A DNA stretch of 64,000 nucleotides from an uncultured Acidobacteriota bacterium (GTDB lineage Bacteria > Acidobacteriota > Thermoanaerobaculia > Multivoradales > UBA5704): contig OY969474.1 of assembly GCA_963700145.1 (NCBI GenBank), positions 4,960,001 through 5,024,000 of the forward strand, in the 5' to 3' direction. The notes beneath the pieces are model-generated. The model had not been told where the DNA came from. It searched no databases and was given only the letters and a program-made list of their open reading frames with translations. A program made the position numbers and the translations under genes. Every line of letters starts with the position of its first letter. Within the stretch, counting starts at the first letter, position 1. Of the stretch, positions 7,871 to 25,321 are shown in pieces.

Positions 7871-8023
7871 GGCAGAAACCCCTCTTCGCCGGCCTGTGCC
7901 AGCCCAGCGCCTCGCACCCCCGTGCCTCCAGTGGGCGACACAGCGGTCCTGTACGCCGCGAAGCGCGTCCCGGCCCGGGGCCTGGCGCCTCGCGGCGCAT
8001 CCGGCCTTCCGGAAGACGGCGGC

Positions 8024-8657: not shown

Positions 8658-8723
8658 TCAACCGCTCCCCAGGCGTCTGCCCGCCCAAGGAGCCTTCGTC
8701 ACCTGCCGGAAGAGCTCGAACAT
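8658..8723 (-). CDS. Putative 21-aa micro-ORF MFELFRQVTKAPWAGRRLGSG
   Basis: ATG overlaps the upstream stop (TGATG); its stop is 1 nt before the next ATG; resembles that gene's N-terminus MLELFGRLLLMPF. Confidence 0.4.
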   Translation of the reverse strand: MFELFRQVTKAPWAGRRLGSG

Positions 8724-10393: not shown

Positions 10394-10578
10394 CGCGCCG
10401 CTCGCCGCCGCGCTGCCCGCGCCGGCAGCGGCTGGTACTCGAACACCGAGCCCAGCCTGTTCTCGCGCTTGAGCATGGGATACCAGACCTCGATCGCCAG
10501 CGTCGCCGTCGACGCCCTCCAGCTCGGCAGCGTGTTGTCGCAAGAACGTTACCATGATCCAGGGCTGCCGCAGCTCCG

Positions 10579-10995
10579 CTATGCACCGGGCGCGGGGATC
10601 GGCCCCCAGCCCGACTGCGGCTGCGGCGCGGAGGGCACGGCCTGGGTGGAGCGCTGCATCAGGTCGACGCCGGCCTGCGCGGTCTGGCAGATTGCGTCGG
10701 CGCCGGTGCGCATCGCGCCGGTGGCGCCGGGGGCCCAGGCGGCTGGGTTCCAGGTGCCGCCGGAGCCGATCATCCCGAACATCATGTCGACCATCCCCTT
10801 CTGCATGCTGTCGCCAGCCCGGTACAGCGACCGCAGCGTCTGCCCGAGTTGCCCCTCGGTTGTGCTGGACACCCCGTTCAACGAAGAGGCGGCCTGGCCC
10901 CAGGTCTGCGGCATCAGCAGGTTGGCCGCCTGCTTCAAGCCGAACAGTGACATCGCCCACGAGAAGCTCATCATCGACTTCGTCAGTTCGCGCAA
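10579..10995 (-). CDS. Stand-alone SWAMS-domain protein, 138 aa, Met-rich and helical
   Basis: TTG start with AAGGAG RBS; MRELTKSMMSFSWAMSLFG...AGDSMQKGMVDMMFG. Confidence 0.85.
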   Translation of the reverse strand: MRELTKSMMSFSWAMSLFGLKQAANLLMPQTWGQAASSLNGVSSTTEGQLGQTLRSLYRAGDSMQKGMVDMMFGMIGSGGTWNPAAWAPGATGAMRTGADAICQTAQAGVDLMQRSTQAVPSAPQPQSGWGPIPAPGA

Positions 10996-11031: not shown

Positions 11032-12699
11032 TCAGGCGAGCCTGAGCATGATTCGGAACAGCATCGCCAGAGCGGCGCCGGCCAGCACGGCCTCCGCCGT
11101 GAACAGGTTGATCCCGGGCTCGGCGGGTCCCCCCGCCACCAGCATCAGCAGCGACAGTGCGCAGGCCGTGACGGCGAGCTGGAGCGCCCGCTGGCGCGAC
11201 TCTCGATGGGACGCCGGGGCGGACCGCGGTACTTCGGCCGCGCCGGGCGGCCCGTCGGCGGCGAACTGCTCCAGGGCTTTCGCCGCCCGAAACGCTCCGT
11301 CGCGGAGCAACCGGGCGCTGGCGCCGGTCCAGTCGATGAGCCGGTCCTCGGCCACCAGCCGCTGCCACCCCTCCCGCCGCAGGTTGCGCTCGCAGACCTC
11401 GGCGAGGTAGGCGCCGACGTCGAACCCGGGCGCGAAGCGGGTGATGAGGCCGTCGATGGCGATGGCCGAGCGGATGTACTTGATGACGTCCCGCTCCGGC
11501 CAGATGCCGGTGGTGCGCGACAGCCGCAGCATGTCGAGCATCACCAGGGTGAAGTTCTTGCGCAGCTTGCGCTGCTTGCCGCGCTGCTCGTACCAGGCCT
11601 CGGCGAAGCGGTCGAGACCGGCGCGGAAGGCGGCGACGTCCGCGCCGGTGTCGAGAGTGGAGACCTTGAGGAAGGCGGTGCACATCCCGTCGAGGTCGCC
11701 GCGCGTGTAGGCCAGGGTCATGGTGATCAGATGACCGCGGGAGTATTGGCTGAGCACGCCGGTGATGCCGAAGTCGACGTAGCCGACGACGTTGCCGGGC
11801 TGGATCAGCAGGTTCGCCGGATGCAGGTCGGCGTGGAAGATGCCGTGGCGGAAGGCGTCGCCCAGGAAGTTGTCGATCATGTGGCGGCCGAACCGGTCGG
11901 GCTCGAAGCCGGCGGCGGCGAGCCGCCGCGGCAGCAGCTCCTCGCCGCTCTCCAGCGCCCGCAGGTAGTCGAGCACGGTGACGCCTTCGAGGAACTCGAC
12001 CGTCAACACCCGCGGCGTGGTGAGCTCGACGACCAGCTCCGGCACCCGCTCGTGGGGGTTGTCCTGCGCGTTGACCCGCAGCCGCTCCATGTAGCGGGCC
12101 TCGTTGCGGTAGTCGAGCTCCTCCAGAGTCCAGGCCACGAACTCGCTCATCGGCTCGATCACCCACTCGAGCCGGCGGATGCGGAAGCGGCGGATCGCCC
12201 CGACCATCGCGCTCATCAGCCGGATGTCGCCGGCGAAGTCGGTGACGACGATCGGCCGCTGCACCTTGACGGCGAGCTTGCGGCCGCCGCGCCAGGCGAC
12301 GTGCACCTGGCCGATCGATGCGGTAGCCAGGGGCTGCCGCTCGAAGACGTCGAAGAGCTCGTCGGGGCCGCGCCCCAGGTCGGCGCGCACCACCGCCTCG
12401 ACCTCCGCGTACGGGAACGGCGCCACCCGGTCGAGCAGGTCGAAGAGGGCGTTGCAGTACTCCAGCGACAGGATGTCGGGCTGCAGCGCCAGCATCTGGC
12501 CGAACTTGATGAAGGTGCCGCCGAGGTCCTCCAGCAGAGCGGCGAAGCGCCGCGGGCCGGGGAGGTCCCCCGGCGGCAGCCGCCGGGCGAGCGCCGGCCA
12601 GCGCGCCAGCCGCGGGCCGAGCGCGTGCGCCACGCCGTGCGCCGCGAGCACGCGCAGGATGTTCCCGAGCCGGCGGAGGTTGGCGGCGGCGGTCCTCAC
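11032..12699 (-). CDS. ABC1/UbiB/AarF atypical kinase/ATPase
   Basis: LGGTFIKFGQ (KxGQ), ATASIGQVH, AVKVQRP, HADLHPAN and DFG; GTG overlaps the upstream stop; C-terminal TM helices. Confidence 0.93.
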   Translation of the reverse strand: MRTAAANLRRLGNILRVLAAHGVAHALGPRLARWPALARRLPPGDLPGPRRFAALLEDLGGTFIKFGQMLALQPDILSLEYCNALFDLLDRVAPFPYAEVEAVVRADLGRGPDELFDVFERQPLATASIGQVHVAWRGGRKLAVKVQRPIVVTDFAGDIRLMSAMVGAIRRFRIRRLEWVIEPMSEFVAWTLEELDYRNEARYMERLRVNAQDNPHERVPELVVELTTPRVLTVEFLEGVTVLDYLRALESGEELLPRRLAAAGFEPDRFGRHMIDNFLGDAFRHGIFHADLHPANLLIQPGNVVGYVDFGITGVLSQYSRGHLITMTLAYTRGDLDGMCTAFLKVSTLDTGADVAAFRAGLDRFAEAWYEQRGKQRKLRKNFTLVMLDMLRLSRTTGIWPERDVIKYIRSAIAIDGLITRFAPGFDVGAYLAEVCERNLRREGWQRLVAEDRLIDWTGASARLLRDGAFRAAKALEQFAADGPPGAAEVPRSAPASHRESRQRALQLAVTACALSLLMLVAGGPAEPGINLFTAEAVLAGAALAMLFRIMLRLA

Positions 12700-14357
12700 G
12701 GCCGCGCTCCTCCCGGCGCCGAAGCGGGCTCGGCGACCGGTCCATCTTCGGCGTCGAAGATGGAGCCCCAGAAGAGGTGCTTGCGCCGCCGCAGCATGTC
12801 GGCGATCGCTTCCTCCAGCCGGCCGCGCACTTCCTGGCTGATCGCCTGGACGATCGCCGGATCGTCCGCCGCCTCGGGCGGGTAGCGGCCGGCGACGTGC
12901 AGCGGCTCGAGGAAGCGAGTGTGCCACTTCGAGGGCAGCGGCAGGCCGGGGAGCGGGAAGTTGGGGCCGAGCGGGAAGTACGGCCACTCGAGGAAGCGGT
13001 GCACCCAGCCGGCGTTGAGGCGCGCGAAGATCGGGTAGATCTCGGCGCTGCCGACGGTGACGAAGGGGACGATCGGCGCGCCGTGCCGCAACGCCATCTT
13101 CACGTACTCGTCGCGCCCGAACTTGCCGAGCAGGTAGGCGCGGCGGTAGGGCGTGAAGGCGCCGTGGATCCCCTCCGGGAACATCCCCAGCAGCTCGCCG
13201 CGCTCGAGCACCCAGTCGCCGTTCTCCTGGCAGGCCGGGATGCCGCCGAGCTTGGTCATGTAGTTGGCCAGGAACGGCTGCTTGACCAGGCAGGGGTGGA
13301 TGAGGAAGCGGATGATCCGCCCGGTCCCCCGCGCCACGGTGTGCAGCGCCATCACTCCGTCCCAGGGCATGAAGCCGCGGTGCACGCCGGTCAGCACGGC
13401 CGCGCCGCGCCGGGGCACGTGCTCGAGGCCGCGCACCTCGATGCGCCAGTAGGCGCGGTGGAGGAAGCGGAAGAGGGTGCGGCCGTAGGCCGCGATGTAC
13501 CGCTCGTCCATGCCGTAGTCGTCGAAGTCGGGGGCGCCGGCCGGGTCGCGCCCGCCGGCGGCGAGGAGCGCCTCGGCGCTCGAGCGCTGCGGCGCCCAGC
13601 CGAGGGCGCGCAGCCGGCGGTCGCCGACCGTCCAGGGGTGGCGCAGGTAGGCCAGCTCGGCGGCGTTGGCCCGCCCAAAGAGGCGGAGCAGCGGCCCGGG
13701 GAGCGGCAGGGCGCTGGCGCCGGCCAGGCGGAGGGCGTCGCGCACCGGCACGACGCCGCGCGGCGCGACGTGGAAGACGCCGTCCGCGTCGCGGTCGACG
13801 ACGCAGCCGACCGCGGCGGCGAGGTCCTCGGGCGCCAGGAGCTGGAGCGAAGGGCCCCAGCCGGCCAGCGGGAAGGCGCGGCGCCGCAGCAGGAAGCGGG
13901 CGAGGGGGTCGCCGCCGTCGCGCGCCACCACCGTCGCCGGCCGCAGCACCGCCAGCCGCCCGCCCCAGCCGGCGGCGGCCGCCGCGGCCATCGCCTCGAG
14001 CTCCAGCCAGCGGCGGGCGATCGGGTTGCGGCCGCGCGGGCGCGTCTCCTCGCCGACGTGGCCGGCGTGCTCGTGCACGGGGTCGTGGACCTGTGCGCTC
14101 GACAGCAGCACCAGCCGCCGCGGCCGGACCGCGCCGAGGGCGTCGAAAAAGCGCGCCGCCGCGTCCAGGTCGGGCCCGCGGCCGGGGAGCGCCCGCGGCC
14201 GGAAGACCACGGTCTCGGTCCCGGCGTCGAGCCGCGCTGCCGCCGCCGGCTCGTCGCCGAGGAGAGCCAGTGCGTCCGCGGCGTCGCCGCCGCGCAGCCG
14301 TTCGGCGATCGCGGCGCTGACGCCGTCCCGCGGCCCGACGAAGGCGACTCTGGCCAT
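12696..14357 (-). CDS. Degenerate extended-SDR/epimerase domain fused to a lysophospholipid acyltransferase
   Basis: N-terminal LVLLSSAQV, LRPATVV and QLLAPEDLA; C-terminal VHRGFMPWDG, FPEG and PLPSKW; AAGGAG RBS. Confidence 0.85.
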   Translation of the reverse strand: MARVAFVGPRDGVSAAIAERLRGGDAADALALLGDEPAAAARLDAGTETVVFRPRALPGRGPDLDAAARFFDALGAVRPRRLVLLSSAQVHDPVHEHAGHVGEETRPRGRNPIARRWLELEAMAAAAAAGWGGRLAVLRPATVVARDGGDPLARFLLRRRAFPLAGWGPSLQLLAPEDLAAAVGCVVDRDADGVFHVAPRGVVPVRDALRLAGASALPLPGPLLRLFGRANAAELAYLRHPWTVGDRRLRALGWAPQRSSAEALLAAGGRDPAGAPDFDDYGMDERYIAAYGRTLFRFLHRAYWRIEVRGLEHVPRRGAAVLTGVHRGFMPWDGVMALHTVARGTGRIIRFLIHPCLVKQPFLANYMTKLGGIPACQENGDWVLERGELLGMFPEGIHGAFTPYRRAYLLGKFGRDEYVKMALRHGAPIVPFVTVGSAEIYPIFARLNAGWVHRFLEWPYFPLGPNFPLPGLPLPSKWHTRFLEPLHVAGRYPPEAADDPAIVQAISQEVRGRLEEAIADMLRRRKHLFWGSIFDAEDGPVAEPASAPGGARP

Positions 14358-14374: not shown

Positions 14375-15958
14375 CTATCCCGCCCGCGCCCACCCCGCCG
14401 GGCCGGCGCGGCTCGGCACCAGGGACGGCTCCAGCGCCGTCCCGAACGGCTCGTCGAGCGCGGCGTCGCGCCCGTCCAGGATGCGGCGGGCCACCTGCTG
14501 CGCCGAGACGATCACCGGCGTGATCCCGCCCCCCGGCTGCACCCAGTGGCCGACGAGGTGGAGGTTGCGCACCGGGCTCTCGGTCCCCGGCCGGTCCGGG
14601 CCGAGCTGGTCGGGCGACATCTCCCAGCCCAGCATCGCCCCCTGATGGTTGAGGGTGAAGCGCCACGAGGTCTGCGCCGTGGCGCTGCTGCTGACCACGA
14701 TGTGCTCGCCGATCCCGGGGAGCACCCTCTCGAGGTTGCCGAAGACGTACTCCTCGAGCCGCCGCTTGTGCGCCGGCCAGTCGGTGATCCCGTCGTAGTC
14801 GATGTCGAGCACCTTCTGGACGATCAGGACCTTCCCCCCCTCCGGCGCCATCGCCGGCTCGTAGAGGGTGGGCGAGAAGAGCTTGAAGCGCAGCGCGTTG
14901 CGCCCCATCCCCCGCGGGTCCCAGTCGTCCCAGTAGTAGCCCTGCGCCGCGTTCAGCACTTCGTCGGGCACGTCGCGCAGGCCGAGGTGGGTAAGCCAGC
15001 AAGGGAAGGTGCAGCGCAGCTCGCGCAGCGCCGCGAGGTGGCCGTCGGGCAGGTGCTCCTCCCCGACCAGCTCCTCGTAGGTGAGCAGGAGGTCGGCGTT
15101 CGAGACCACGACGTCGCTGCGCACCGCGGCGGGCCCCCGCCACGGGCCGCGCAGCGTCTCGAGCTCCACCCCGCGCGCCGTGCCGTCCTCGATCAGGATG
15201 CGCCGCGCCGCCGTGCTCATCAGCACGTGGCCGCCCTGCTCCTCGAGGCGCAGCGCCAGCTCGTCGGCGAAGGCCTGCGAGCCTCCCTTCGGGTAGTAAT
15301 TGCCGAGGAAGTAGGAGAGCCGCAGCATCGAGTCGAAGACGAAGGAGGTGCGGTCGGGGGGCGAGCCCCAGTGCGGCGCGTCGGCGGTCAGCAGGAGCTT
15401 GAGCTTGGGGTCGCGGAACCACTCGTCGAGCGCGTCCATCACCGTGACTTCGCGCAGCGGCTGGAGCTTCTCGACGCGCGCCGCCGGCAGGCCGCGGAAG
15501 TAGTGCAGGAGGCCGGCGAAGTAGGCCTTCCGCACCGTGCCGAAGAAGCCGTCGAGGGCCGCTTCCTCGTGCGGGAACTCGGCCTTGAGGGCGTCGAGGT
15601 AGGTCTCGAAGTCGGCGGCGACGGCGAAGCGCGTGCCGTCGGGGAAGTGGAAGACGTCGACCGGGTCCATCTTGACCCAGCCCGTCGTGACGCCGAGCTC
15701 GGCGAGGATGCGCCCCGGCAGCGTCTCGGGGTTGCCGAGCAGCGGGTAGAAATGAGTGGCGGCGTCGAAGGTGTAGCCGCCGCGGCGGAAGGTGCTGCAG
15801 AAGCCCCCGGCCATGTAGTGCTGCTCGACGAGCAGTACCTTCATGCCGCCGCGCGCCAGCAGGTTGGCCGCGATCAAGCCGCCGATGCCGGAGCCGATGA
15901 TCACCGCGTCGTAGCGCGGGTCGGGCGGCCGGCGCAGGCCGCGGAAGGGTCGCTTCAT
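14375..15958 (-). CDS. Phytoene desaturase/CrtI-like FAD-dependent oxidoreductase
   Basis: DAVIIGSGIGG, GGFCSTFRRGGYTFD, YPKGGSQ and NLHLVGHWVQPGGG. Confidence 0.9.
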   Translation of the reverse strand: MKRPFRGLRRPPDPRYDAVIIGSGIGGLIAANLLARGGMKVLLVEQHYMAGGFCSTFRRGGYTFDAATHFYPLLGNPETLPGRILAELGVTTGWVKMDPVDVFHFPDGTRFAVAADFETYLDALKAEFPHEEAALDGFFGTVRKAYFAGLLHYFRGLPAARVEKLQPLREVTVMDALDEWFRDPKLKLLLTADAPHWGSPPDRTSFVFDSMLRLSYFLGNYYPKGGSQAFADELALRLEEQGGHVLMSTAARRILIEDGTARGVELETLRGPWRGPAAVRSDVVVSNADLLLTYEELVGEEHLPDGHLAALRELRCTFPCWLTHLGLRDVPDEVLNAAQGYYWDDWDPRGMGRNALRFKLFSPTLYEPAMAPEGGKVLIVQKVLDIDYDGITDWPAHKRRLEEYVFGNLERVLPGIGEHIVVSSSATAQTSWRFTLNHQGAMLGWEMSPDQLGPDRPGTESPVRNLHLVGHWVQPGGGITPVIVSAQQVARRILDGRDAALDEPFGTALEPSLVPSRAGPAGWARAG

Positions 15959-15995
15959 TGGAGAGAACCGCCTCCGCGGGGGAGGGAGCGCCGCA

Positions 15996-17219
15996 TCACG
16001 GCTGGTCTCCTTGCGGGCGGTTCCGCCCATAGGTCTCGTGCGCGTTCACGAACTCCCCCGACGCCAGGGCCGCCCCCATCGACAGCTCGCCGGCGAGCAG
16101 CGTCGCGGCGGCGACCTCCGCCAGCTTCCGCGCCCCGCCGGCGCCGGCACAGCCCAGCAGCTCCAGGCACTCCTGCGCCGTCCCCAGAGCGGTGCCGCCC
16201 CCCACCGTCGCCACGGTGAGCGACGGCAGGGTGACGCTGGCGTAGAGGTCGCCTCCCGCGAGCTCCTCGAACTGTGTCATGCCGACGGCCGAGTTGGCCA
16301 GGTTCGCCACGTCCTGGCCGCAGGCGATGAAGAGCGCCGCCAGGCCGTTGGCGTAGTGGCCGCTGTAGCCGATCGCGCCCGCCTGGATCTTGCCCGTCAC
16401 GGTATGTCGCCAGAGCTCCGCCAGCTCGCCGGCCGAGACGTGCAGGTAGGTCTGCAACAGCCGCGCCGGCAGGCGCGCGCCGGCCACCACGCGCTTCCCC
16501 TTGCCGCCGGCCAGGAGGCCGCCCCCGGCCTGCTTCTCGCCGTCGAGGCCGCTGAAGATCGAGTAGCCGCGGGCGCGGCCGTGGGCGACGATCCAGCGGC
16601 AGGCGGCGTCGGTGGCGCGCACGATCATGTTCATGCCGTGCGCGTCGCCGGTCGAGTAGCAGAAGTTGACCATCACCTCCCGCCCCACCGCCCGCGGCTC
16701 CAGCCGCAGCAGCCGGCCGTGGCGGGTGGTGGCCTCGGCGGCGGCGCGGATCTCGGCGAAGTCGGCCGCCAGCTCGTCGACGAAGCGGCAGGCCTCCTCG
16801 ACGCTGTCGAGGAAGAAGGCGGGGGCGACGCGGTTCTCGTCCTGGTAGAGGTGGACGGCGGCGCCGCCGGCGCGCGTCAGCGTGACCATGCCGCGCTCGT
16901 AGGAGCGCACCAGCGCCCCCTCGTTGGTCGCCAGCGGCACGTAGAAGAGCCCCCGGGCGTGCTCGCCGTGGACGAGCAGCGGCCCGGCCAGGCCGAGCGG
17001 CACTTGCGCCACGCCGATCGGGTTCTCCACCTTGCCGCGCATCGCCAGGGTGGGAAGCGGCTCAGAGCCGACGTGCCGCAGCGCCACGCCCGCGCGCTCT
17101 TCGATCCAGCGCCGCCGCGCCGCGACCTGCGCGTCGCCGTACCCCTGCTCCTCGAAGCGCGGCACCAGGTCGGCCGCGCGCATCGCCGACGGGAAGGCGG
17201 TGACGGTCGTGCGCGCCAC
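15996..17219 (-). CDS. HMG-CoA reductase-like (class I) protein, copy 2
   Basis: ENPIG, TNEGALV, DAHGMNM, GQD, TVGGGT, GELS and a C-terminal His; GGAGG RBS. Confidence 0.9.
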   Translation of the reverse strand: MARTTVTAFPSAMRAADLVPRFEEQGYGDAQVAARRRWIEERAGVALRHVGSEPLPTLAMRGKVENPIGVAQVPLGLAGPLLVHGEHARGLFYVPLATNEGALVRSYERGMVTLTRAGGAAVHLYQDENRVAPAFFLDSVEEACRFVDELAADFAEIRAAAEATTRHGRLLRLEPRAVGREVMVNFCYSTGDAHGMNMIVRATDAACRWIVAHGRARGYSIFSGLDGEKQAGGGLLAGGKGKRVVAGARLPARLLQTYLHVSAGELAELWRHTVTGKIQAGAIGYSGHYANGLAALFIACGQDVANLANSAVGMTQFEELAGGDLYASVTLPSLTVATVGGGTALGTAQECLELLGCAGAGGARKLAEVAAATLLAGELSMGAALASGEFVNAHETYGRNRPQGDQP

Positions 17220-17221
17220 GC

Positions 17222-17266
17222 TCAGACCTCCGCCCCGTCCCCCGCGAGGGCCACGCGCCCTTTCAT
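17222..17266 (-). pseudogene. 14-codon relic of a ketosynthase N-terminus
   Basis: MKGRVALAGDGAEV compared with KS MKRRIVVTGLGAVT; same ATGA overlap with an ACP stop. Confidence 0.5.
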
Positions 17267-17541
17267 CCCTCCACCGCCTGGGCCTTCCGCGCCAGCTCGC
17301 CCAGCCGCCCCTGGACGAGGGCGACCATCGCCGGCAGGTTGTCGATCTCCTTGTAGCGGTCGTCCGCCAGCCCGAGCTGGAAGTTGTAATCGACGTCGAC
17401 GCCGATCTCGAGCAGCGACAGGGAGTCGAGGTTGAGATCGTCGCGGAGCGTCGCCTCGTCGGGGATGCGCGCCGGGTCGAGGCCGGCGACGTGGGCGATG
17501 ATCTCCTTCAGGCGGGTGCGGATCGCGTCGGTGTCGTTCAT
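17263..17541 (-). CDS. Acyl carrier protein, copy 2
   Basis: DLNLDSLSLLEI phosphopantetheine Ser motif; paralog of 24981-25268. Confidence 0.93.
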   Translation of the reverse strand: MNDTDAIRTRLKEIIAHVAGLDPARIPDEATLRDDLNLDSLSLLEIGVDVDYNFQLGLADDRYKEIDNLPAMVALVQGRLGELARKAQAVEG

Positions 17542-17754
17542 GCGCCCTCACTGACCGCACGCCGCCACCGGCCGCCGGCGGCGGAGAGCAGTCGAAGTCC
17601 GTGGTGAGCCTGCCGGGCGGCAGGCAAAGGGGCGGCAGCTCGGCGGACGCCGAGCCGCGCATTCGAGTCGACGGTTGAGCGGACGCAAGCGGCAATCCCT
17701 CCGGGCCCTCCGGCCGACTTGCGTCCCGTCAGCCGCGATGGCCGCATTGCCCGT

Positions 17755-17780
17755 CTTTCAAATGAATTTATAACATAAGG
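17755..17780 (-). promoter_or_regulatory. AT-rich patch, possible promoter for the ACP2 unit
   Basis: CCTTATGTTATAAATTCATTTGAAAG on the minus strand, in the approximately 300-bp gap upstream of ACP2. Confidence 0.4.
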
Positions 17781-17838
17781 CCCACGATGCTACCAGGAGT
17801 CTGCGAGGGAAAATCGGGAGCGCCGGCTCCCATAATCT

Positions 17839-19296
17839 CTATGGATGCGGCGCGAACACGGCATGGAAGCCGGGGGTGATCGGGGCGGCCAGCGGCAGGA
17901 CGGCGCGCGGTCCGGCGGCGAGGTCGAAGGCGTCGAAGACCAGCCAGGAGCTGGCGCGGCGCTCGGCATCGAAGAGGTGGCAGACGGCAACGCCGCGCAG
18001 CGAGCCGTCGTGCTCGGTTTCCGGTGCGAGTACCACGACCGGCTCGCTCGCCAGGTACCGTCCCGGCGGCGGCTGCCAGACGTCCTGGGTCTCCGGGTCC
18101 GCCCACGAGAGGCGCACGAGCTGGTCGAAGAACTTGCGCCCCGGCCGGCCGGTGGCGGCGATGCCGAGGAGCCAGAGGTCGTCGCACGGTCGCTCCGCCA
18201 GGCGGAGGTCGATCGACGGGAAGTCCGGCGCGTTGCCGTAGGGCAGCTCGCGCCGCTCGACGAGGGCGCCGGCCTCCAGGTCCACCACCAGCCGCACCGG
18301 CCACCCCTCCGCCACGTCGCGGAAGAGCTCGGGGACCGGCGCGTACTGGTCGTAGACCGGCCGCTCCAGCTCGAGCAGGTCGACGACCAGCCGCCCGCGC
18401 GCGTCCTCGAAGGCGTTTGCCGTGTGCAGGCAGTAGCGGCCGCCGAGCGGCAGCTCGGCCACCGCCTCCAGCGTGTCGCGCGCCACGACGAGCAGCCGGC
18501 TGCCGAGCTCCGGCCGCCAGTCGAGCGCCTCCAGCAGCGGCGCGCCGCCGGCGAGGGCGGCCATGTCGAGCAGGTAGGGCGAGAGGTAGAAGACGGCGTA
18601 TCGCGGCGCCAGGGCGAAGTCGTGGAGCGAGCACGGGTACGGCAGCGGCAGCCGCTTGCGCGCCGCCAGCTTGCCGCCGGCGGTGCAGCGGTAGACGTTG
18701 AGCGCCGGCTCGGCGCCGGCGAAGGAGACGCCGAAGTTCCACAGCTCGCCGGTCGCCGGGTCGAGCTTGGGGTGCGCCGAGAAGGGAGCGATCGGGCCGA
18801 GGCCACCGCCGAAGGTGTAGGGGCCGCGGGTCGCCAGCGTCTCCGGGTCGATCTCCCAGGGTAGCCCCTGCTCGCCGCAGGCGAGGAGCGTGCCGGCGTA
18901 GGGCAGCACGCTGACGTTGACCGGCGACTCCAGGGCGATGCCGCGCAGCAGCCGGTCGCCGGGGAAGGCGGTACCGAAGGCGCGAAAGAGCGCCCGCCCC
19001 GCCTCCTCCTCTGCCGTCCACTTGACGCTGCGCACGAAGCGGCAGGTGAAGCGGACGCCGTCCTCTCCGAAGCGTAGGGCCTCGACCAGCCCGTCGCCGT
19101 CGAGCCAGTGGCGGTAGCGCAGGCCGCCGCGCTCGAACCGCCCGGGGCCGTTGACGTAGAGCGTGCCGCGCAGCCAGTCGGGCAGCTCGCCGGCGACCGC
19201 GACCGCCTCGCTCCGCTCCTCGGGCAGGAAGTCGAAGGCGCGCTCGAGGTGGGGCGCGTAGTCCGCGTCCCCGGGCGCCCGCGCCGGCTCGCTCAT
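17839..19296 (-). CDS. Carotenoid oxygenase (RPE65/CCD/LSD family)
   Basis: GTLYVNGPG, HWLDGDG, four iron-ligand His (SAHPK, LHDF, LHTAN, GFHA), DFP and SEP. Confidence 0.93.
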   Translation of the reverse strand: MSEPARAPGDADYAPHLERAFDFLPEERSEAVAVAGELPDWLRGTLYVNGPGRFERGGLRYRHWLDGDGLVEALRFGEDGVRFTCRFVRSVKWTAEEEAGRALFRAFGTAFPGDRLLRGIALESPVNVSVLPYAGTLLACGEQGLPWEIDPETLATRGPYTFGGGLGPIAPFSAHPKLDPATGELWNFGVSFAGAEPALNVYRCTAGGKLAARKRLPLPYPCSLHDFALAPRYAVFYLSPYLLDMAALAGGAPLLEALDWRPELGSRLLVVARDTLEAVAELPLGGRYCLHTANAFEDARGRLVVDLLELERPVYDQYAPVPELFRDVAEGWPVRLVVDLEAGALVERRELPYGNAPDFPSIDLRLAERPCDDLWLLGIAATGRPGRKFFDQLVRLSWADPETQDVWQPPPGRYLASEPVVVLAPETEHDGSLRGVAVCHLFDAERRASSWLVFDAFDLAAGPRAVLPLAAPITPGFHAVFAPHP

Positions 19297-21101
19297 CGCG
19301 CCGCCGCCGCGGCCTCCATCGTCTCCTCCGGCTCGACCTCCACGTCCTCGCCGGCGGGCCGCCGGAAGCGCGCCATGCAAGCGGGCTCGATCTGCCAGGG
19401 GGAATCGCCCGCCGGCAGGTCCTTGCAGGCCTGCCAGCGCGCTGCCATCGCCTCCGGGTCGAAGACCAGGTTCGCGACGTCGATGCCGCGCACGTACTCG
19501 GCGTGGTGGACCAGCCGCGGCTCGTCCAGCACGACGGCGGCGACGTGCGCGGCGACGAAGCGCGCCAGCTCCTCCAGGTTGCCGGTCTGCTCGTCGAGCA
19601 CGCGGAACGCTTCGTTGAAGTCGGCGCCCTGCCGGTAGAAGCAGTCGGCCGCGGCGCGGAGCTGCCAGGCCTCGGTGAACTCGAAGTAGACGGGCCCTTG
19701 CGGCGGCAGCATCCGCCGCTCCTTCTTCCAGTTGTAGAAGCCGACCAGCAGCGTGAGGACCCCGAGGTTGAGCGGCCCGAGGTGGCCGAAGCGCCGCAGG
19801 AAGCCGGGGAGGAACCGCTTGTCGGTGAAGAGGTCGTTGATGAAGGGGAAGACGAAGAAGGCGAAGTAGATCGTCAGCTCCCAGACGTAGCGCAGGGTGT
19901 AGCACTCCTGGTCCCCGAGCAGGTCCTGCGACACCGCGAAGCTCGGCACGTAGGCCTGGTAGACCGCGCGCGCCAGCCCCTCGTAGAGCGGGACCTTCTC
20001 CTCCAGCTCCTTGCGGTCCGCGGTCAGGATGGCGTCCGAGACGATCGTGTTGTAGATCGAGATCAGGTCGCCGCCGGGGCTGTAGAGGGGGTCGGTGAAG
20101 CGGCAGGCCTCGCCGGTCATCGACCAGCCGGCCGCCGAGAGCGTCTCCGCGCAGTCGTGGGCGAAGTCGGCGAAGCCCGAGTGGTAGATGACCTTCCGCT
20201 GTGGCAGGTCGCGGGCGAACATCGGGATGTTGCGGCACACCCAGTCGATCAGCTTGTCGGCGGTGTTGACCTCTTTCCACGGCACGCGCTCGGTGTCGAA
20301 GACCAGCCCCAGGCTGGTCTTGCCGTGCAGCGGGATCTCCCAGAACCAGTAGCCCTCGCCGCAGAAGTGGTTGGTGGCGAGGAACGTCGGGACGTGCCCC
20401 AGATTGTGGCGGTCCTTGCGCTTGCGGATGCCGGCCGCGTCGAGGTCGGTCAGCTTCTCGGGGTCGAGCAGCCCCTCCACCCAGAGGAACGAAGAGCCGT
20501 GGCGGATCGGGCTCTTGCGCATCAGCCCCCTGCGCTTGGCGAGCAGGCGGCCGCGGCCGCTGTTGTCGGCCACCCAGCGCGCGCGGCCGGCGATCGGGCC
20601 GTCGGGGGTCTGGACGCGGAAGGGGTGCGGGCCCTGCTCCTCCTGCAGCTCCAGCTCGATGTTCGTCGCCTCGGTCACCAGCCGGAAGCTCGGGTGCTCC
20701 TGGTTGACGCGCAGCACCTCGGCCTCGAAGGCGTTGCGGTCGAGCTGGTAGGTGACGATGTTCGACAGGTGCCGGATGTAGGACTGGCTCTGCTCCTCCC
20801 AGCGCGTGGCGCCGCCCGGCGGCTGCCAGTAGAAGCGCAGGTTGTACTTCATGTAGTGGTGGCGGAGGAGGTGCTCCTCGAGCTCCAGCACGCGCGCGTA
20901 GTAGTAGCCGGAGACCTGCACCGTGGCCTCCCCCACCTTCTGCTCCAGCGGCGGCACGACCGCCCGCCGGTCGAGCATCAGGATGCGCATCTCGGGGCGC
21001 TTCAAGAGGAGCTGGCGCGCCAGCGTCAGGCCGGCCAGGCCGGCGCCGATCACCAGCACGTCGTAGTCCTCGACCCGGGTTTGCTGCCGCGTCTCATCCA
21101 T
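19293..21101 (-). CDS. Flavin-dependent halogenase-like enzyme
   Basis: GAGLAG, KVGEAT, HYMKYNLRF (candidate catalytic Lys), WFWEIP (WxWxIP) and FTDPLYSPG. Confidence 0.82.
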   Translation of the reverse strand: MDETRQQTRVEDYDVLVIGAGLAGLTLARQLLLKRPEMRILMLDRRAVVPPLEQKVGEATVQVSGYYYARVLELEEHLLRHHYMKYNLRFYWQPPGGATRWEEQSQSYIRHLSNIVTYQLDRNAFEAEVLRVNQEHPSFRLVTEATNIELELQEEQGPHPFRVQTPDGPIAGRARWVADNSGRGRLLAKRRGLMRKSPIRHGSSFLWVEGLLDPEKLTDLDAAGIRKRKDRHNLGHVPTFLATNHFCGEGYWFWEIPLHGKTSLGLVFDTERVPWKEVNTADKLIDWVCRNIPMFARDLPQRKVIYHSGFADFAHDCAETLSAAGWSMTGEACRFTDPLYSPGGDLISIYNTIVSDAILTADRKELEEKVPLYEGLARAVYQAYVPSFAVSQDLLGDQECYTLRYVWELTIYFAFFVFPFINDLFTDKRFLPGFLRRFGHLGPLNLGVLTLLVGFYNWKKERRMLPPQGPVYFEFTEAWQLRAAADCFYRQGADFNEAFRVLDEQTGNLEELARFVAAHVAAVVLDEPRLVHHAEYVRGIDVANLVFDPEAMAARWQACKDLPAGDSPWQIEPACMARFRRPAGEDVEVEPEETMEAAAAAR

Positions 21102-22332
21102 CGCTGCCTCCCTCCGGCCGGTTGCGGCCGTACTCCTCGTGCGCGCCCACGAACTCCCCGGAGGCGAGCGCCGCGGCGAGCGACAGCTCGCCGGCCAGCA
21201 GGGTCGCGGCGACGATCTCGGCCAGCTTGCACGCGCCACCGGCACCGGCGCAGCCCAGCAGCTCCAGGCACTCGCGGGCCGTGCCCTCGCCGGTGCCGCC
21301 GCCGACGGTGCCGACGGTGAGCGCCGGCAGCACCACGCTGGCGTAGAGGTCTCCGGCCTCCGTCAGCTCGAGCTGGGTCGTGCCGACCGCGGCGTTGGCG
21401 AGGTTCGCCACGTCCTGGCCGCAGGCGATGAAGATCGCGGCCAGACCGTTGGCGAAGTGACCGTTGTAGCCGACCACGCCCGCCTGCAGGTTGCCGACCA
21501 GCGTCGTGCGCCAGAGCTGCACCAGCCGCCGCGGCTCGCTGTTGAGGTAGGCGCGCACCAGCCGGCCCGGCAGGTGCGCCCCCGCCATCACCGTCTTCCC
21601 CTTGCCGCCGGCGAGGAGCGAGGCGCCGGCGTGCTTCTCCGACTCCATGCCGCTGAACAGCAGGTAGTCGCGCGCCAGCCCCTTGGCGACGATCCAGCGG
21701 CAGGCGCGGTCGGCGGCCTTCGCGATCATGTTCATGCCGTGCGCGTCGCCGGTCGAGAAGCAGAAGTGCACCATCACCTCGCGCCCCACGGCCCGCGGCT
21801 CGAGGCGCAGCAGGCGGCCGTGGCGGGTCGTCGCCTCGGCCTCGGCGCGGATCTCGGGCAGCAGCTCCTGGAGCCGGAGGCAGAGGTCGGCGGCCTGCCC
21901 GACGTCGTCGAGGAAGAAGACGGGCGAGATGCGGTTCTCGTCGCGGGTGACGCGGGCGGCGACGCCGCCGGCGCGGCTGAGCAGCACCATGCCGCGCTCG
22001 TAGGAGCGGACCAGCGCGCCTTCGGTCGTGGCGAAGGGGACGTAGAAGACGCCGCGGGCGTGGTCGCCGTTGACCAGCAACGGCCCGGCCAGGCCGAGCG
22101 GCACCTGCGCGGCGCCGATCGGGTTCTCGACGTTGCCGCGCATCGCGCGGCCGTCGATCGAGTGCGCGCCGACGTGCGCCAGGGGGACGCCGCACCGCTC
22201 CTCGATCCAGCGGCGGCGCGCGGCGATCTGCTCCGGCTCGTACCCCTGCTCCGCGAAGCGCGGCACCAGGTCGGCGCGAGCGGCGTCCGGCTCCAGCGGA
22301 ACGGCGTGCGGGCGCGGCGACGGCGGCGCCAT
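21094..22332 (-). CDS. HMG-CoA reductase-like (class I) protein, copy 1
   Basis: GNVENPIG, TTEGALV, DAHGMNM, GQD, GTVGGGT, GELS and AHEEYGR. Confidence 0.9.
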   Translation of the reverse strand: MAPPSPRPHAVPLEPDAARADLVPRFAEQGYEPEQIAARRRWIEERCGVPLAHVGAHSIDGRAMRGNVENPIGAAQVPLGLAGPLLVNGDHARGVFYVPFATTEGALVRSYERGMVLLSRAGGVAARVTRDENRISPVFFLDDVGQAADLCLRLQELLPEIRAEAEATTRHGRLLRLEPRAVGREVMVHFCFSTGDAHGMNMIAKAADRACRWIVAKGLARDYLLFSGMESEKHAGASLLAGGKGKTVMAGAHLPGRLVRAYLNSEPRRLVQLWRTTLVGNLQAGVVGYNGHFANGLAAIFIACGQDVANLANAAVGTTQLELTEAGDLYASVVLPALTVGTVGGGTGEGTARECLELLGCAGAGGACKLAEIVAATLLAGELSLAAALASGEFVGAHEEYGRNRPEGGSDG

Positions 22333-23552
22333 CAGGCCGGCCCCGCGAAGACGACGGCGCAGCAGTGGCCGTCCCAGCCGACACCGCTGGCGAGCGCGCG
22401 GCGGGCCGCGACCGGGCGGGCGGCGGCGGCGAGGCCGCCGAGCGCGCAGCCGTCCTCGGTCGCTTCGAGCCCGGCGACGCCGGGCAGCTCACCGGTGCGG
22501 AAGGTCTCGAGCAGCGCCACCGCCTGGAAGCCGCCCGAGGCGCCGAGCGCCTCGCCGAGCGCGCCCTTGACCGCGGTCACCGGCACCGCCGCGGCCGCGC
22601 GGCCGAGCGCCGCCGCCAGCCCCGCCGCCTCGGCGCGGTCGCCCTCCGGGCTGCCGTTGGCCGCCGCGGAGACGCAGTCGATCTCCTCCGCCGCGAGGCC
22701 GGCCTGCCCGAGCGCCAGGCCGACGGCGCGCGCCACCGCGCCGGCGCGGGCGGCGGGAGAGGGGGCGAAGGCCTGGCCGTGCGCCACCACCTCGGCCAGC
22801 ACGGTCGCGCCGCGCGCCGCCGCCGACTCGGCGTCCTCCAGCATCAGCAGGGCCGCGCCCTCGGAGAGGGCGAAGCCGTTGCGCCGCCGGTCGAAGGGGA
22901 CCGGCCGCTCGGCGCCGTCGGGCCGCGGTCCGCAGAGGCGCCCGGCGCGGAAGCAGCCGAGGAACGACTCGAAGCACAGCTCCTCGGCGCCGCCGGCCAG
23001 CAGCGCGTCGGCGCGGCCGCCGGCGATCAGGTCGGCGGCGTGGGCGATCGCCATGAGCCCCGAGGCCTCGCCGCCGGAGAGCGTCGAGTTGACGCCGCGC
23101 AAGCGGTGCCAGATCGCGGCCTGCCCGGCGGCGGCGTTGATGACGCTGTTGGCGAAGTCCATCGGGCTGGCGTACCCCGGCCCCAGCTGCTGCCCGCGCC
23201 GGTCGAACTCCGCGATCGTCCGCACACTGCAGAAGGTGGTGCCCAGGACCAGCCCCACCTCGCGCTCGTCCAGCCGCTCGGGCGTCCAGCCGGCCGACGC
23301 CAGCGCCTGCCCGGCCGCCACGAGCAGCAGCCGCGAGGTGCGGTCGACGGGCCGCAGGTTCCGGTCGCCGAGGTAGGCGCGGGCGTCGAACGGGCGGATC
23401 TCCCCGGCCCGCACGGCCCCCAGGCCGTTGGTCGGAAAGAGCTCCACCGGCTTGAGCGCGCTCTCCCCGGCGCACAGCGCCGCGTGCAGGGCGGAAGGAG
23501 AATCGCCGAGTGGGGAAATAACCCCGGCGCCCGTGACCACGACCCTCCTCAC
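22332..23552 (-). CDS. Non-catalytic ketosynthase homolog (chain-length-factor-like)
   Basis: KS fold (VVVTGAG, PFDRRRNGFALSEGA) with GGEASG at the Cys position, SAAANGS for AHGTGT and LGEALG for LGH. Confidence 0.85.
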   Translation of the reverse strand: MRRVVVTGAGVISPLGDSPSALHAALCAGESALKPVELFPTNGLGAVRAGEIRPFDARAYLGDRNLRPVDRTSRLLLVAAGQALASAGWTPERLDEREVGLVLGTTFCSVRTIAEFDRRGQQLGPGYASPMDFANSVINAAAGQAAIWHRLRGVNSTLSGGEASGLMAIAHAADLIAGGRADALLAGGAEELCFESFLGCFRAGRLCGPRPDGAERPVPFDRRRNGFALSEGAALLMLEDAESAAARGATVLAEVVAHGQAFAPSPAARAGAVARAVGLALGQAGLAAEEIDCVSAAANGSPEGDRAEAAGLAAALGRAAAAVPVTAVKGALGEALGASGGFQAVALLETFRTGELPGVAGLEATEDGCALGGLAAAARPVAARRALASGVGWDGHCCAVVFAGPA

Positions 23553-23569
23553 AGGTCAACCCCCTGCAT

Positions 23570-23747
23570 TGTCATCCTGAGCGAGAGCGAACCCGAATTC
23601 CGGTCAGTGCCTGCTCCGGCAGGCGACCGCTCGGGTAGCGGAGCCCATGAGTGGGCTCCGCAAGGATCTGGGCGGGGGGCGGCGCACAGACGCAGCGATC
23701 TCGCGCCACCCTGCCCCCCAGATCCCTCGCTCTCGCTCGGGATGACA
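23570..23747. repeat. Palindromic MITE/REP-like element between KS and CLF
   Basis: 21-bp terminal inverted repeats TGTCATCC(T/C)GAGCGAGAGCGA with one mismatch; internal hairpin GCGGAGCCCA-TGAG-TGGGCTCCGC. Confidence 0.85.
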
Positions 23748-23766
23748 GGCAGTCGCGTATCGCCGT

Positions 23767-24984
23767 TCACAGCTCGCAGCTCCGGAAGATCACCGACGCA
23801 TTATTCCCCCCGAAGGCGTAGGCGTTGTTCATCGTCACCCGCACGTCCAGCTTTCGCGCCGCGTTCGGCACCACGTCCAGATCGCACTCCGGGTCCGGCT
23901 CCTCGTAGTTCATCGTCGGCGGCACCCGGCCCGTCGCGATCGCCAACGCGCACACTACCGACTCGATCGCCGACGCCGCCCCCATCGTGTGGCCCAGCAT
24001 CGACTTCACCGAGCTCATCGGCGGCACCCCACCCTCACCAAACACCCGCTGCACCGCGATCGTCTCCAACCGATCGTTCGTCGGCGTCCCCGTGCCGTGC
24101 GCGCTGATGTAGCTCACCTCGTCCGGCGCCACCCCCGCGTCCGCCAGCGCCCGCTCCATCGCCCGCGCCGCTCCGTCACCCTCCGGGTGCGCCGCCGTCA
24201 TGTGGTGCGCGTCGCACGACAGGCCATACCCCGCCACCTCGGCGTAGATCCGCGCTCCCCGCCCGACCGCCCGCTCCAAGGGCTCCAGCACCAGGACCGC
24301 CGCTCCTTCCCCAGGGATCATCCCCTTCCGGTTCTTGTCGAACGGCCGGCAGAGGTCCGGGGCGATCGCCCCGAGACGGAAAAAGCCCGTGTAGGTGATC
24401 CGCGAGAAGGCGTCCGCGCCGCCGGCCAGCATCAGGTCCGCGCGCCCGGCCCGCAGCACGTCCAAGGCGTGCGCCACCGCGTAGTTGCCCGCCGCGCAGG
24501 CCGCCGGGATCATCGTGTTGACCCCGCCGAACCCCAGCTCCTGGCCGACGTGCGCCGCGATCATGTGGCAGGGGTAGAGGCCCATGAACTCCGGACCCAC
24601 TTGGTCCAGCTCGCCGGCGAGATAGCGGTCGTCGAAGCGCTCGACCTCCACCGGCTCGCCCGAGGTCGTCCCCATCGAGACCCCGGCGCGCTCGGGCTCC
24701 ACCGCCTCGGCCTCCAGACCGGCGTCGGCCAGCGCCATTCGCGCCGCCGCCACCGCGAATTGCGAGGCCCGTCCCAGCGCCGCGGGGTCGAGCGTGCGCA
24801 CCCACGCCGCCGGCTCGAAGCCGCGCACCTCGGCGCCGAGGTGGACGTTGAACCGCCCGGTGTCGAAGGACTCGACCGGCGTGAAGCCGCTGCGCCCCGC
24901 CAGCAGCCCCGACCACAGCTCGTCCGCCCCCGTGCCGACCGGCGTCACCGCCCCGAGGCCGGTGACGACGATCCGCCGCTTCAT
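23767..24984 (-). CDS. Beta-ketoacyl-ACP synthase (FabF/type II KS-like)
   Basis: AACAAG, AHGTGT and KSMLGH triad; AFGGNN; ATGA overlap with the ACP gene. Confidence 0.95.
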   Translation of the reverse strand: MKRRIVVTGLGAVTPVGTGADELWSGLLAGRSGFTPVESFDTGRFNVHLGAEVRGFEPAAWVRTLDPAALGRASQFAVAAARMALADAGLEAEAVEPERAGVSMGTTSGEPVEVERFDDRYLAGELDQVGPEFMGLYPCHMIAAHVGQELGFGGVNTMIPAACAAGNYAVAHALDVLRAGRADLMLAGGADAFSRITYTGFFRLGAIAPDLCRPFDKNRKGMIPGEGAAVLVLEPLERAVGRGARIYAEVAGYGLSCDAHHMTAAHPEGDGAARAMERALADAGVAPDEVSYISAHGTGTPTNDRLETIAVQRVFGEGGVPPMSSVKSMLGHTMGAASAIESVVCALAIATGRVPPTMNYEEPDPECDLDVVPNAARKLDVRVTMNNAYAFGGNNASVIFRSCEL

Positions 24985-25268
24985 GCCGAGGCCGCCTGCG
25001 CTCCCACGGCCAGCTCCTCGAGGCGCTCGCTGACGAGGGCGACCATGTCGGGGATGCTGCGGACCTCCTTGAAGCGCTCGTCGGGGAGACCGAGCTGGAA
25101 GGCGTAGTCGACGTCGACCCCGATCTCGAGCAGCGACAGCGAGTCGAGGTGCAGGTCCTCCCGCAGGGACGCCTCGTCGCCGATCCGTTCGACGTCGAGC
25201 CCGGCCACGTGTGCGATGACGTCCTTGATGCGGTCCCGGATGGCCGCTTCGTCCGTGCGATGGTCCAT
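24981..25268 (-). CDS. Acyl carrier protein, copy 1
   Basis: DLHLDSLSLLEI; AGGAGG RBS before ATG 25268. Confidence 0.93.
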   Translation of the reverse strand: MDHRTDEAAIRDRIKDVIAHVAGLDVERIGDEASLREDLHLDSLSLLEIGVDVDYAFQLGLPDERFKEVRSIPDMVALVSERLEELAVGAQAASA

Positions 25269-25321
25269 GCCCGTCCTCCTGGGATGTGTGAGCCGCGCTC
25301 TCGAAATCAAAAGAGGCGGCG

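Follow-up and report, generated by a model that had tools for sequence, protein, structure and literature searches.

The closest described relatives of the enzymes considered here are the FcrA proteins of Natronomonas pharaonis and Candidatus Promineifilum breve, homologues of HMG-CoA reductase (HMGR; HMG, 3-hydroxy-3-methylglutaryl) that reduce fatty acyl-CoA of at least C14 to the alcohol with NADPH, that reduce neither HMG-CoA nor free aldehyde, and that are not inhibited by simvastatin (PMC11948995, ISME J 2025). According to the main-text parts of that paper, FcrA is set apart from HMGR by Glu in place of S684, a small residue in place of 'Lys795' (by its context, K735) and Trp or another bulky residue in place of L862; an N-terminal lipid-binding Lad domain is present in 'certain' FcrA proteins only, ACP-fused forms are noted, and ties to PlsC-like proteins and ether lipids are proposed. 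We analysed a stretch of 64,000 nucleotides from an uncultured Acidobacteriota bacterium (the window; positions 4,960,001 to 5,024,000 of a single 5.46 Mb contig, G+C about 72%) that encodes two further HMGR homologues, HMGR1 and HMGR2, in an operon with acyl carrier protein (ACP) and ketosynthase (KS) genes. On balance we favour the reading that both are HMGR-fold acyl-thioester reductases that make an alcohol, most probably directly from ACP, in a lipid operon.

An earlier reading of this DNA from its letters alone (the sequence-only reading) had proposed reductive chain release from ACP and had held that role to be undescribed for the HMGR fold. The second point does not stand, since FcrA reduces fatty acyl-CoA to alcohol and ACP-fused forms are mentioned in the published main text (PMC11948995). 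Repurposing of the HMGR fold is already published; what is new, relative to those main-text parts, is a domain-less subclade in a conserved operon of ACP, KS, chain length factor (CLF), HMGR-like, CrtI-like, acyltransferase and ABC1 genes. A domain-less subclade linked to KS, CLF and ACP is not mentioned in the main-text parts of that paper, supplements aside, and their text has zero occurrence of Acidobacteri-, ketoacyl, polyketide or acyl-ACP. Literature searches on HMGR-type release in polyketide/ACP or type II polyketide synthase (PKS) systems, including Acidobacteria, returned nothing relevant among the papers listed, and the literature on highly reducing type II polyene/alcohol systems returned nothing on HMGR-like release.

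Both reductases are intact, with PF00368 matches that span profile positions 2–368 of 368 in each, and their translations contain the motifs ATNEG/ATTEG, DAHGMN (both), ACGQD and NAHETYGRN/GAHEEYGRN. The equivalents of the catalytic residues Glu559, Lys691, Asp767 and His866, noticed in the sequence-only reading, are kept in both copies (E100, K229, D303 and H394 in HMGR1; E104, K233, D307 and H398 in HMGR2). That reading had also pointed to SEKH or GEKQ for the cis-loop DKK and to DAHGMN for DAMGMN; the translations bear out both changes, with GEKQ/SEKH at the site of canonical DKK, and refine their register. In a MAFFT alignment of 144 family members, which is ungapped at the cis-loop and sets the register used here (HMMER pairwise alignments differ in gap position), E-K-[HQ] aligns with D690-K691-K692, such that D690 is replaced by E, K691 is kept and K692 is replaced by Q/H. 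S684 is replaced by F in both copies (F222 and F226), the 'SG' of FSGM not being the canonical S684-G685, and the HMG pocket is further changed by K735 to H/T (H272 and T276), L862 to F (F390 and F394) and R590 to V/I; both copies retain GGGT and the counterpart of N755. S684, K735, L862, R590 and K692 occur in all 8 canonical representatives. The spacing from the catalytic Lys to Asp (74) and from Asp to His (91) is that of the non-canonical group, and the canonical values are 75 and 96. Across 48 orthologues, E100, E228, K229, N291 and D303 of HMGR1 are invariant and F222, F390 and H394 nearly so; R109, which aligns with human R568, is invariant as well. Both proteins score below the 441.8-bit cut-off of TIGR00533, the NCBI equivalog model of HMGR (310.4 bits for HMGR1 and 324.9 bits for HMGR2), and the names given to the best 120 homologues are all HMGR.

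Compared with canonical class I HMGR (human 1dq8, archaeal 6hr7), the window copies share the catalytic tetrad, the N755 equivalent and GGGT, and their best Protein Data Bank (PDB) match is 6hr7 at 294 bits; they differ in the altered HMG pocket, the score under the cut-off and the absence of a mevalonate-gene neighbourhood. With FcrA, as described in the published parts, they share the fold, the catalytic Glu/Lys/Asp/His, the loss of the salt-bridge Lys K735, a bulky aromatic residue four residues before the His, placement outside canonical HMGR, the 74 and 91 spacing and association with a PlsC-like acyltransferase. Unlike FcrA, they have Phe rather than Glu at S684, Phe rather than Trp at L862, DAHGMN rather than DAxGQN, no Lad domain (PF00368 only) and ACP/KS/CLF surroundings, and they lie on another major branch than the Lad-type paralogue of the same genome (below). 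Set against the published FcrA residue rules, the window residues F, H/T and F all differ from HMGR, and only the bulky residue at 862 agrees with its rule as written.

A family search gave 3420 matches at E ≤ 0.001 among 1.84 billion representatives, and a FastTree phylogeny was built from 144 sequences (the four paralogues of this genome and 140 of the best 150 matches, the other 10 having been dropped for a length below 330 aa). The canonical clade of 8 sequences splits from the remainder with support 1.0 and the window pair falls outside it; the sequence-only reading had called for a phylogeny to test for a separate clade. P0193 (416 aa, DAMGMN) takes an intermediate place in the tree, between the 8 canonical sequences and the remaining 135, and is counted in the non-canonical tallies. 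The remainder includes an 88-tip 'DAxGQN' group (support 0.94), which contains the Lad-type paralogue, and a 39-tip group (support 0.955), where the window pair clusters with P0124 (support 1.0); support is only 0.36 at the node that joins these two groups.

The genome holds four PF00368 genes: the two window copies, one at 1.62 Mb and one at 5.43 Mb. The 1.62 Mb copy is canonical (DAMGMN, LSGNYCTDKKP and RKNLLGS motifs) and sits between a polyprenyl synthase and a mevalonate kinase (148 bits) in a cluster (about 1,618,900–1,626,500) that lies 3.3 Mb from the window copies and also encodes a diphosphomevalonate-decarboxylase-like protein (210 bits, over its cut-off), an SQS_PSY protein and a possible isopentenyl phosphate kinase of the amino-acid-kinase family; a further open reading frame (ORF) looks by eye like a type 2 isopentenyl diphosphate isomerase. 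Mevalonate-kinase-like matches occur at 1.62 and 4.34 Mb only, both outside the window, and the HMG-CoA synthase models TIGR01835 and PF01154 match nowhere in the genome (completeness 95.43%); the window's lack of HMG-CoA synthase and mevalonate kinase, stated in the sequence-only reading, is in agreement with both results. That reading had further proposed that a complete mevalonate pathway elsewhere would count against it. The pathway at 1.62 Mb is nearly complete, HMG-CoA synthase not being found, and the cluster may represent an alternative mevalonate route; its presence does not discriminate between the readings, because that pathway has its own canonical HMGR.

The 5.43 Mb copy carries an N-terminal PF25653 domain, which presumably is the Lad domain of PMC11948995, and matches the published FcrA residues exactly: Glu at 684, Val at 735 and, four positions ahead of the catalytic His, Trp. 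An ABC1 kinase and a PlsC acyltransferase, and no ACP, are encoded within a few genes of this Lad-type FcrA-like paralogue (5,429,300–5,436,200), surroundings that echo the reductase/acyltransferase/ABC1 core of the window operon. We surveyed an even sample of 401 Acidobacteriota genomes with a profile of the window's clade and found three separate score bands: 590–710 bits in 13 genomes, including the source genome, 380–422 bits, the band of the Lad-type paralogue, and 285–325 bits, that of the canonical copy. In five genomes the clade member is the only HMGR-family match (E ≤ 1e-30); decarboxylase matches were found in 0 of the 5 and their GHMP-kinase matches stay at or below 89 bits (cut-off 163), all five being of one family and so representing few independent cases. 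The separate clade, the altered HMG pocket, the canonical HMGR elsewhere, the decarboxylase-less relatives and the conserved synteny described below together argue for a non-mevalonate role, and from sequence comparison it is well supported that both genes are non-mevalonate members of the HMGR fold, related to FcrA and with a remodelled acyl pocket. By analogy with FcrA, we infer that the substrate class is an acyl thioester and, more weakly, that the carrier is ACP rather than CoA and the product alcohol rather than aldehyde.

The gene neighbourhood connects the reductases to carrier proteins. As the sequence-only reading had it, each copy lies downstream of an ACP gene: ACP_b lies 43 nt upstream of HMGR1, and ACP_a heads an ACP–KS–CLF–HMGR2 run. 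In a species-level genome collection, 202 stretches encode relatives, and we examined the best 80 of the 202 (76 loci), which cover Thermoanaerobaculia, Pyrinomonadaceae and Blastocatellia, Candidatus Angelobacter, Candidatus Solibacter, Holophagales, Vicinamibacteria and Terriglobia; tblastn with the window proteins located 80 reductase genes in these loci. A KS-family gene stands directly upstream in 49 of the 63 reductase genes that have at least 3.2 kb of upstream sequence, and an ACP lies within 3.2 kb in 46 of the same 63. Downstream, a CrtI-like gene follows within 1.7 kb in 56 of 68 (those with at least 3.3 kb of downstream sequence), and the acyltransferase, ABC1, small protein and second ABC1 genes usually come next. 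The halogenase-like and dioxygenase genes form a frequent yet movable pair among related loci, moving as a translationally coupled unit. Stand-alone reductase copies occur in seven loci, with a common context limited to three related genomes.

In L010, the nearest relative (93%), both modules are complete, in the order ACP-KS-CLF-HMGR2-FAD-CCD-ACP-KS-CLF-HMGR1-CrtI. Its second module reads ACP-KS-CLF-HMGR1 (L010:14886-18964), that of L011 reads ACP-KS-HMGR1 (L011:6536-9325), and in the window (15996–17541) and L012 (L012:18407-19931) the ACP is followed directly by HMGR1. On these arrangements, the second module has lost its KS–CLF pair stepwise, and the ACP–reductase pair outlives the loss of its KS–CLF, because the window and L012 keep the ACP–HMGR1 adjacency. 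A deeper variant (L088:7528-8856 in G336; L088–L090 and L092) consists of HMGR-like, short-chain dehydrogenase/reductase (SDR), CrtI-like, TetR, acyltransferase and ABC1 genes, with ACP, KS and CLF not found in the stretch; its SDR matches adh_short at 206 bits. The deepest conserved core is accordingly reductase, CrtI-like, acyltransferase and ABC1, with ACP/KS/CLF a module added in the window's branch. A ketoreductase (KR) or dehydratase (DH) was not found in the gap genes of L017 and L062, which instead encode FG-GAP/ASPIC proteins, a sigma-like regulator and a two-component system.

Domain fusions in the family point in the same direction. Among nine long representatives scanned, three have the architecture AMP-binding/PP-binding/HMG-CoA_red and four AMP-binding/HMG-CoA_red, and two of the nine carry a C-terminal kinase-like domain. 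The three fusions, which resemble carboxylic acid reductase (CAR), are P0146, P0188 and P0203, the latter two with an EcKL/APH kinase-like C-terminus; P0175 combines DUF3419, HMGR and APH. Such carrier-domain fusions are Rosetta-stone evidence that the HMGR fold can work on carrier-bound thioesters. Within the window's group, 10 scanned members show PilZ (6), hotdog (2), receiver (1) or no extra domain (1). Over both scans, the window's major branch has an N-terminal PilZ in 7 of 11, with one receiver and two hotdog domains (representatives of that branch scanned: P0126, P0127, P0128, P0129, P0131, P0133, P0136, P0138, P0141 and P0213). The PilZ and receiver fusions hint at control of an acyl-thioester reductase by cyclic di-GMP or a phosphorelay.

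We predicted the complex of an HMGR1 dimer with ACP_b, the HMGR–ACP modelling that the sequence-only reading had suggested, using our own 48-row alignments, with which the calibration holds only roughly. The model scores 0.72 against 0.00 for the best control; 58 of 80 solved complexes attain that mark, as do 2 of 110 mismatched pairs. Contacts agree between the three runs to at least 76%, and pLDDT for the partner is 84 or higher. The predicted contacts place ACP_b residues 37–49, around the pantetheine Ser40, against two HMGR1 segments: 14–25, a clade-conserved N-terminal segment, and 105–112, which aligns with human 564–571 (offset from E100 = E559), a stretch that we take to be part of the CoA site. 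Among the contact residues are R105, R109 and the 18–25 segment of HMGR1 and helix II of the ACP. We know of no solved HMGR–ACP complex, and a pass by model memory is therefore unlikely. The model supports binding of ACP to HMGR1. Direct use of acyl-ACP is thus backed by synteny, by the fusions of AMP-ligase, carrier and HMGR domains and by a complex model that passed its controls, none of which proves it. Of the sequence-only proposal of reductive release from ACP, the recruitment of non-mevalonate thioester reductases to an ACP/KS pathway stands, and the acyl-ACP substrate has this indirect support.

In the mechanism that we propose, the dedicated ACP and a heterodimer of an active KS and an inactive, CLF-like KS would build or extend an acyl chain, depending for the reductive steps on fatty acid synthesis of the housekeeping kind. 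The HMGR-like enzyme, having kept the Glu/Lys/Asp/His chemistry and the NADPH motifs, would then carry out a four-electron reduction of the thioester to a primary alcohol, the chain most probably reaching it from ACP through the tunnel that receives the CoA pantetheine in HMGR. The alcohol would next be handled by the CrtI-like flavoenzyme, and the pseudo-SDR/PlsC acyltransferase would esterify it or feed it into an ether lipid, with ABC1/UbiB-like proteins, the halogenase-like flavoenzyme and the carotenoid-oxygenase-like dioxygenase as accessories. For the operon product our best guess is a lipid derived from an alcohol, either ester or ether, whose chain is modified and possibly unsaturated. 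A bolder version, which we offer tentatively and do not expect to hold in full, makes the HMGR fold a dedicated chain-release reductase acting on the acyl-ACP of a KS/CLF system related to the anammox 'ladderane' Cluster I and giving a new class of lipids in Acidobacteriota, ethers or esters derived from the alcohol, which might be desaturated or polyene and would sometimes be halogenated; ABC1 kinases and a small amphipathic protein would handle them in a plastoglobule-like manner.

Several observations weigh against reductive release from ACP. The pocket changes are uneven: the K692 position is Arg in the consensus of the 48 orthologues, the H/Q there being a local feature of the source genome, and P0124, which groups with the window pair, has Lys in the K735 column. 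Loss of K692 as a trait of the clade is ruled out by that Arg consensus. The tree lacks the assayed FcrA sequences. An adjacent KS gene is missing in 14 of the 63 loci, four of five further regions (three from one family) contain only HMGR-like, CrtI-like, acyltransferase and ABC1 genes, and in L088 (9 ORFs scanned) an SDR stands between HMGR and CrtI, with ACP and KS not found. KR, DH, enoylreductase, malonyl transferase, thioesterase and CoA ligase are all absent among the operon proteins scanned. The complex prediction reports model confidence, not binding. The assayed relatives, the FcrA proteins, use acyl-CoA, and in the published text available an assay of the HMGR fold on acyl-ACP is not in print. 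In a rival explanation, which we consider rather unlikely, the window enzymes are strict FcrA-type acyl-CoA reductases, fed either by an ACP-made chain that is released and re-activated as CoA or by the cellular acyl-CoA pool, with ACP, KS and CLF as partners in the pathway but not direct ones of the reductase. The chain length of at least C14 accepted by FcrA as acyl-CoA (PMC11948995), the clade relatives without ACP/KS/CLF, the retained R109 and the Lad-type paralogue, whose neighbours include an ABC1 kinase and an acyltransferase but no ACP, all suit it. However, the conserved core contains no thioesterase, CoA ligase or acyl-ACP:CoA transferase, the ACP–reductase adjacency persists after loss of KS–CLF, carrier-domain fusions occur in the superclade, and the predicted complex passed its controls.

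Two other explanations concern the reaction itself. The enzymes might not perform four-electron release at all, stopping instead at a two-electron reduction to the aldehyde, or running oxidatively to load an alcohol or aldehyde on the carrier thiol as a starter; candidates that could use an aldehyde or alkene adjoin (CrtI-like, dioxygenase), and some HMGRs are catabolic, the class II Pseudomonas enzyme among them. We regard this as improbable, for the complete catalytic tetrad is present in these class-I-like enzymes, the downstream acyltransferase needs a hydroxyl acceptor or donor, and FcrA, as published, yields alcohol and takes up no free aldehyde, which fits a bound hemithioacetal. Least credible of all, and in our view very improbable, is that they are genuine diverged HMGRs making mevalonate for an isoprenoid product on which the CrtI-like and carotenoid-oxygenase-like neighbours act. 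Such neighbours are indeed present, the Pfam family and all catalytic residues are those of HMGR, and the pathway bookkeeping is incomplete without an HMG-CoA synthase in the genome; against this, the scores fall under the equivalog cut-off, the S684, K735 and L862 equivalents are changed, the canonical HMGR sits in the mevalonate cluster, none of the five relatives' genomes has a decarboxylase match, and family scans of the operon revealed neither a prenyl nor a terpene synthase. Reduction of an acyl thioester to alcohol, most probably from ACP, remains the reading that we favour.

The chain-building partners place the operon beside two further described systems. The anammox 'Cluster I' combines an amxFabF2/amxFabFmut heterodimer, amxACP and a phytoene-dehydrogenase homologue, and Iga11 is given as the closest structural homologue of amxFabF2 (bioRxiv 10.64898/2026.05.19.726425, in the parts of the text available). 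The best PDB match of the window KS is 9s5h_B at 490.7 bits, followed by Iga11 (6kxd) at 383.2, with FabF structures at most 337; the best match of the CLF-like partner is 9s5h_C at 241 bits. From its molecule names and the preprint, 9s5h appears to be the amxFabF2/amxFabFmut heterodimer, the accession itself not being found in the searchable literature text. Read by eye against the KS, the partner has Glu at the Cys position and has lost both His. As far as the preprint describes the anammox cluster, both systems bring together in a single cluster an active KS, its inactive counterpart, a dedicated ACP and a gene of the CrtI family; they differ in that amxFabZ and a radical SAM gene are missing from the window operon and an HMGR-like gene from the anammox cluster. 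The match of ACP_a to the anammox ACP 7auf is weak (26.8 bits), and the Ser of the ACP_a DSL is invariant in the 48 orthologues. The highly reducing type II PKS of ishigamide (Iga11–Iga12) likewise has a CLF-like partner, and the window KS is nearer to Iga11 than to any FabF structure, whereas the window operon has no KR or DH and its proposed release is reductive rather than by amide formation.

A third comparison concerns the acyltransferase. ElbD-type ether-lipid enzymes (FAAL-ACP-reductase-PlsC, Myxococcus), CAR and the reductase (R) domains of non-ribosomal peptide synthetases share the logic of taking a carrier thioester to an alcohol beside a PlsC-type acyltransferase, and the window acyltransferase, with an SDR-fold N-terminal domain, resembles the reductase–acyltransferase half of ElbD. 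Its AlphaFold model (pLDDT 81.4, pTM 0.80) has an extended-SDR fold at the N terminus that matches extended SDR epimerases and reductases (best 6kv9, E 1.9e-12, target TM 0.66). A conserved Gly-rich motif is absent from this domain in 31 orthologues, as is an obvious Tyr/Lys pair, and the domain is probably inactive. The PlsC part has an invariant H-x6-D (HRGFMPWD); the usual motif of the PlsC family is H-x4-D. In the Atlas the acyltransferase has weak neighbours (0.85, no more than a lead) from Myxococcota that combine NAD_binding_4 with Acyltransferase. The resemblance to ElbD suggests that the HMGR-like enzyme took over the reductase role. Unlike ElbD-type enzymes and R domains, the window reductase has the HMGR fold rather than the SDR fold. 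A wax ester synthase was not found in the genome, the only matches to the wax ester synthase/diacylglycerol acyltransferase family being two of 24–25 bits inside giant ORFs.

The remaining partners are more distant from named families. The CrtI-like enzyme reaches 145.6 on TIGR02734 (cut-off 238.1), the dioxygenase 161.7 on its nearest NCBIfam model, lignostilbene dioxygenase NOV2 (cut-off 650), and the first ABC1 protein 227.2 on TIGR01982 (cut-off 487.55). PF04820 is present in 97–100% of members of the Atlas neighbour clusters of the halogenase-like enzyme (score 0.99). Pfam and NCBIfam scans of the small 130-aa protein gave no match, and judged by sequence it is no hotdog dehydratase.

The operon lies on the minus strand and is densely packed, some neighbouring genes sharing a few bases (for example CLF and HMGR2 at 22332). 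It is transcribed in the order ACP_a, KS, CLF, HMGR2, halogenase-like enzyme, RPE65-family dioxygenase and ACP_b, then HMGR1, CrtI-family enzyme, SDR/PlsC fusion, ABC1/UbiB, small protein and ABC1-like protein. Genes were called by analysis of G+C at third codon positions (GC3) and family scans (Pfam, NCBIfam); the ORFs 17768–19021 and 23549–23770 and most of 25488–26828 were rejected as wrong-frame or only partly coding (GC3; zero family matches).

Table. Genes of the reductase operon in window coordinates, in order of transcription.
Feature	Coordinates	Strand	Remarks
ACP_a, carrier protein at head of module 1	24981..25310 (likely start 25268)	-	LHLDSLSLLEI; best PDB match AcpM 1klp, 41 bits
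Active ketosynthase	23767..24984	-	PF00109 + PF02801; Cys-His-His; motifs ACAAGN, HGTGT, GHTMGA
CLF-like inactive KS partner	22332..23552	-	PF00109 + PF02801, weaker scores; stop overlaps HMGR2 start at 22332
HMGR2 (P0002), HMGR-fold putative thioester reductase, 412 aa	21094..22332	-	PF00368, 347.2 bits
Flavin-dependent halogenase-like FAD enzyme	19293..21104	-	PF04820 at 25.6 bits + DAO; WFWEIP motif
RPE65/carotenoid-oxygenase family dioxygenase	17839..19296	-	PF03055, 317.7 bits
ACP_b, carrier protein directly upstream of HMGR1	17263..17541	-	PF00550, 31.6 bits; D39-S40-L41 invariant
HMGR1 (P0001), HMGR-fold putative thioester reductase, 407 aa	15996..17219	-	PF00368, 336.7 bits
CrtI-family (phytoene-desaturase-like) flavoenzyme	14375..16030 (start uncertain)	-	PF01593; PDB 4rep, 4dgk
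Degenerate extended-SDR domain fused to PlsC-type acyltransferase	12696..14357	-	PF01553 at residues 319-447
ABC1/UbiB-family atypical kinase	11032..12987 (start probably nearer 12700)	-	PF03109, 180.1 bits
Small conserved protein (130 aa) without family, between two ABC1 genes	10579..10974	-	tblastn matches at the corresponding place in many loci
Second, more diverged ABC1/UbiB-like protein	8723..10420	-	PF03109, 80.5 bits; syntenic in related loci

Upstream on the same strand, at 26198–28372, lies a gene for an EamA-type transporter fused to a beta-propeller-like domain, with PVC-type haem-binding and ScyE-like matches under their cut-offs; beside it, 25488–26198 encodes a small protein that has a hydrophobic tail and the motif HEAFH. 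Many related loci likewise have the two upstream of the operon. At 6116–8023, just downstream of the operon with its halogenase-like gene, a 635-aa protein has a C-terminal half that matches haloalkane dehalogenase at equivalog level (294.4 bits, cut-off 241).

Bacterial genes annotated as 'HMG-CoA reductase' are probably for the most part not mevalonate enzymes, and isoprenoid-pathway calls for Acidobacteriota are at risk of error because the best 120 homologues are all named HMGR. If the window enzymes take acyl-ACP, the HMGR fold would be a second, unrelated solution, beside the SDR-type R domains, to reductive release from carriers. They would then also provide a handle on an uncharacterised lipid pathway, present in 13 of the 401 sampled Acidobacteriota genomes and in 202 stretches and akin, in the enzymes that build its chains, to the unsolved ladderane cluster of anammox, as that cluster is described in the available preprint text.

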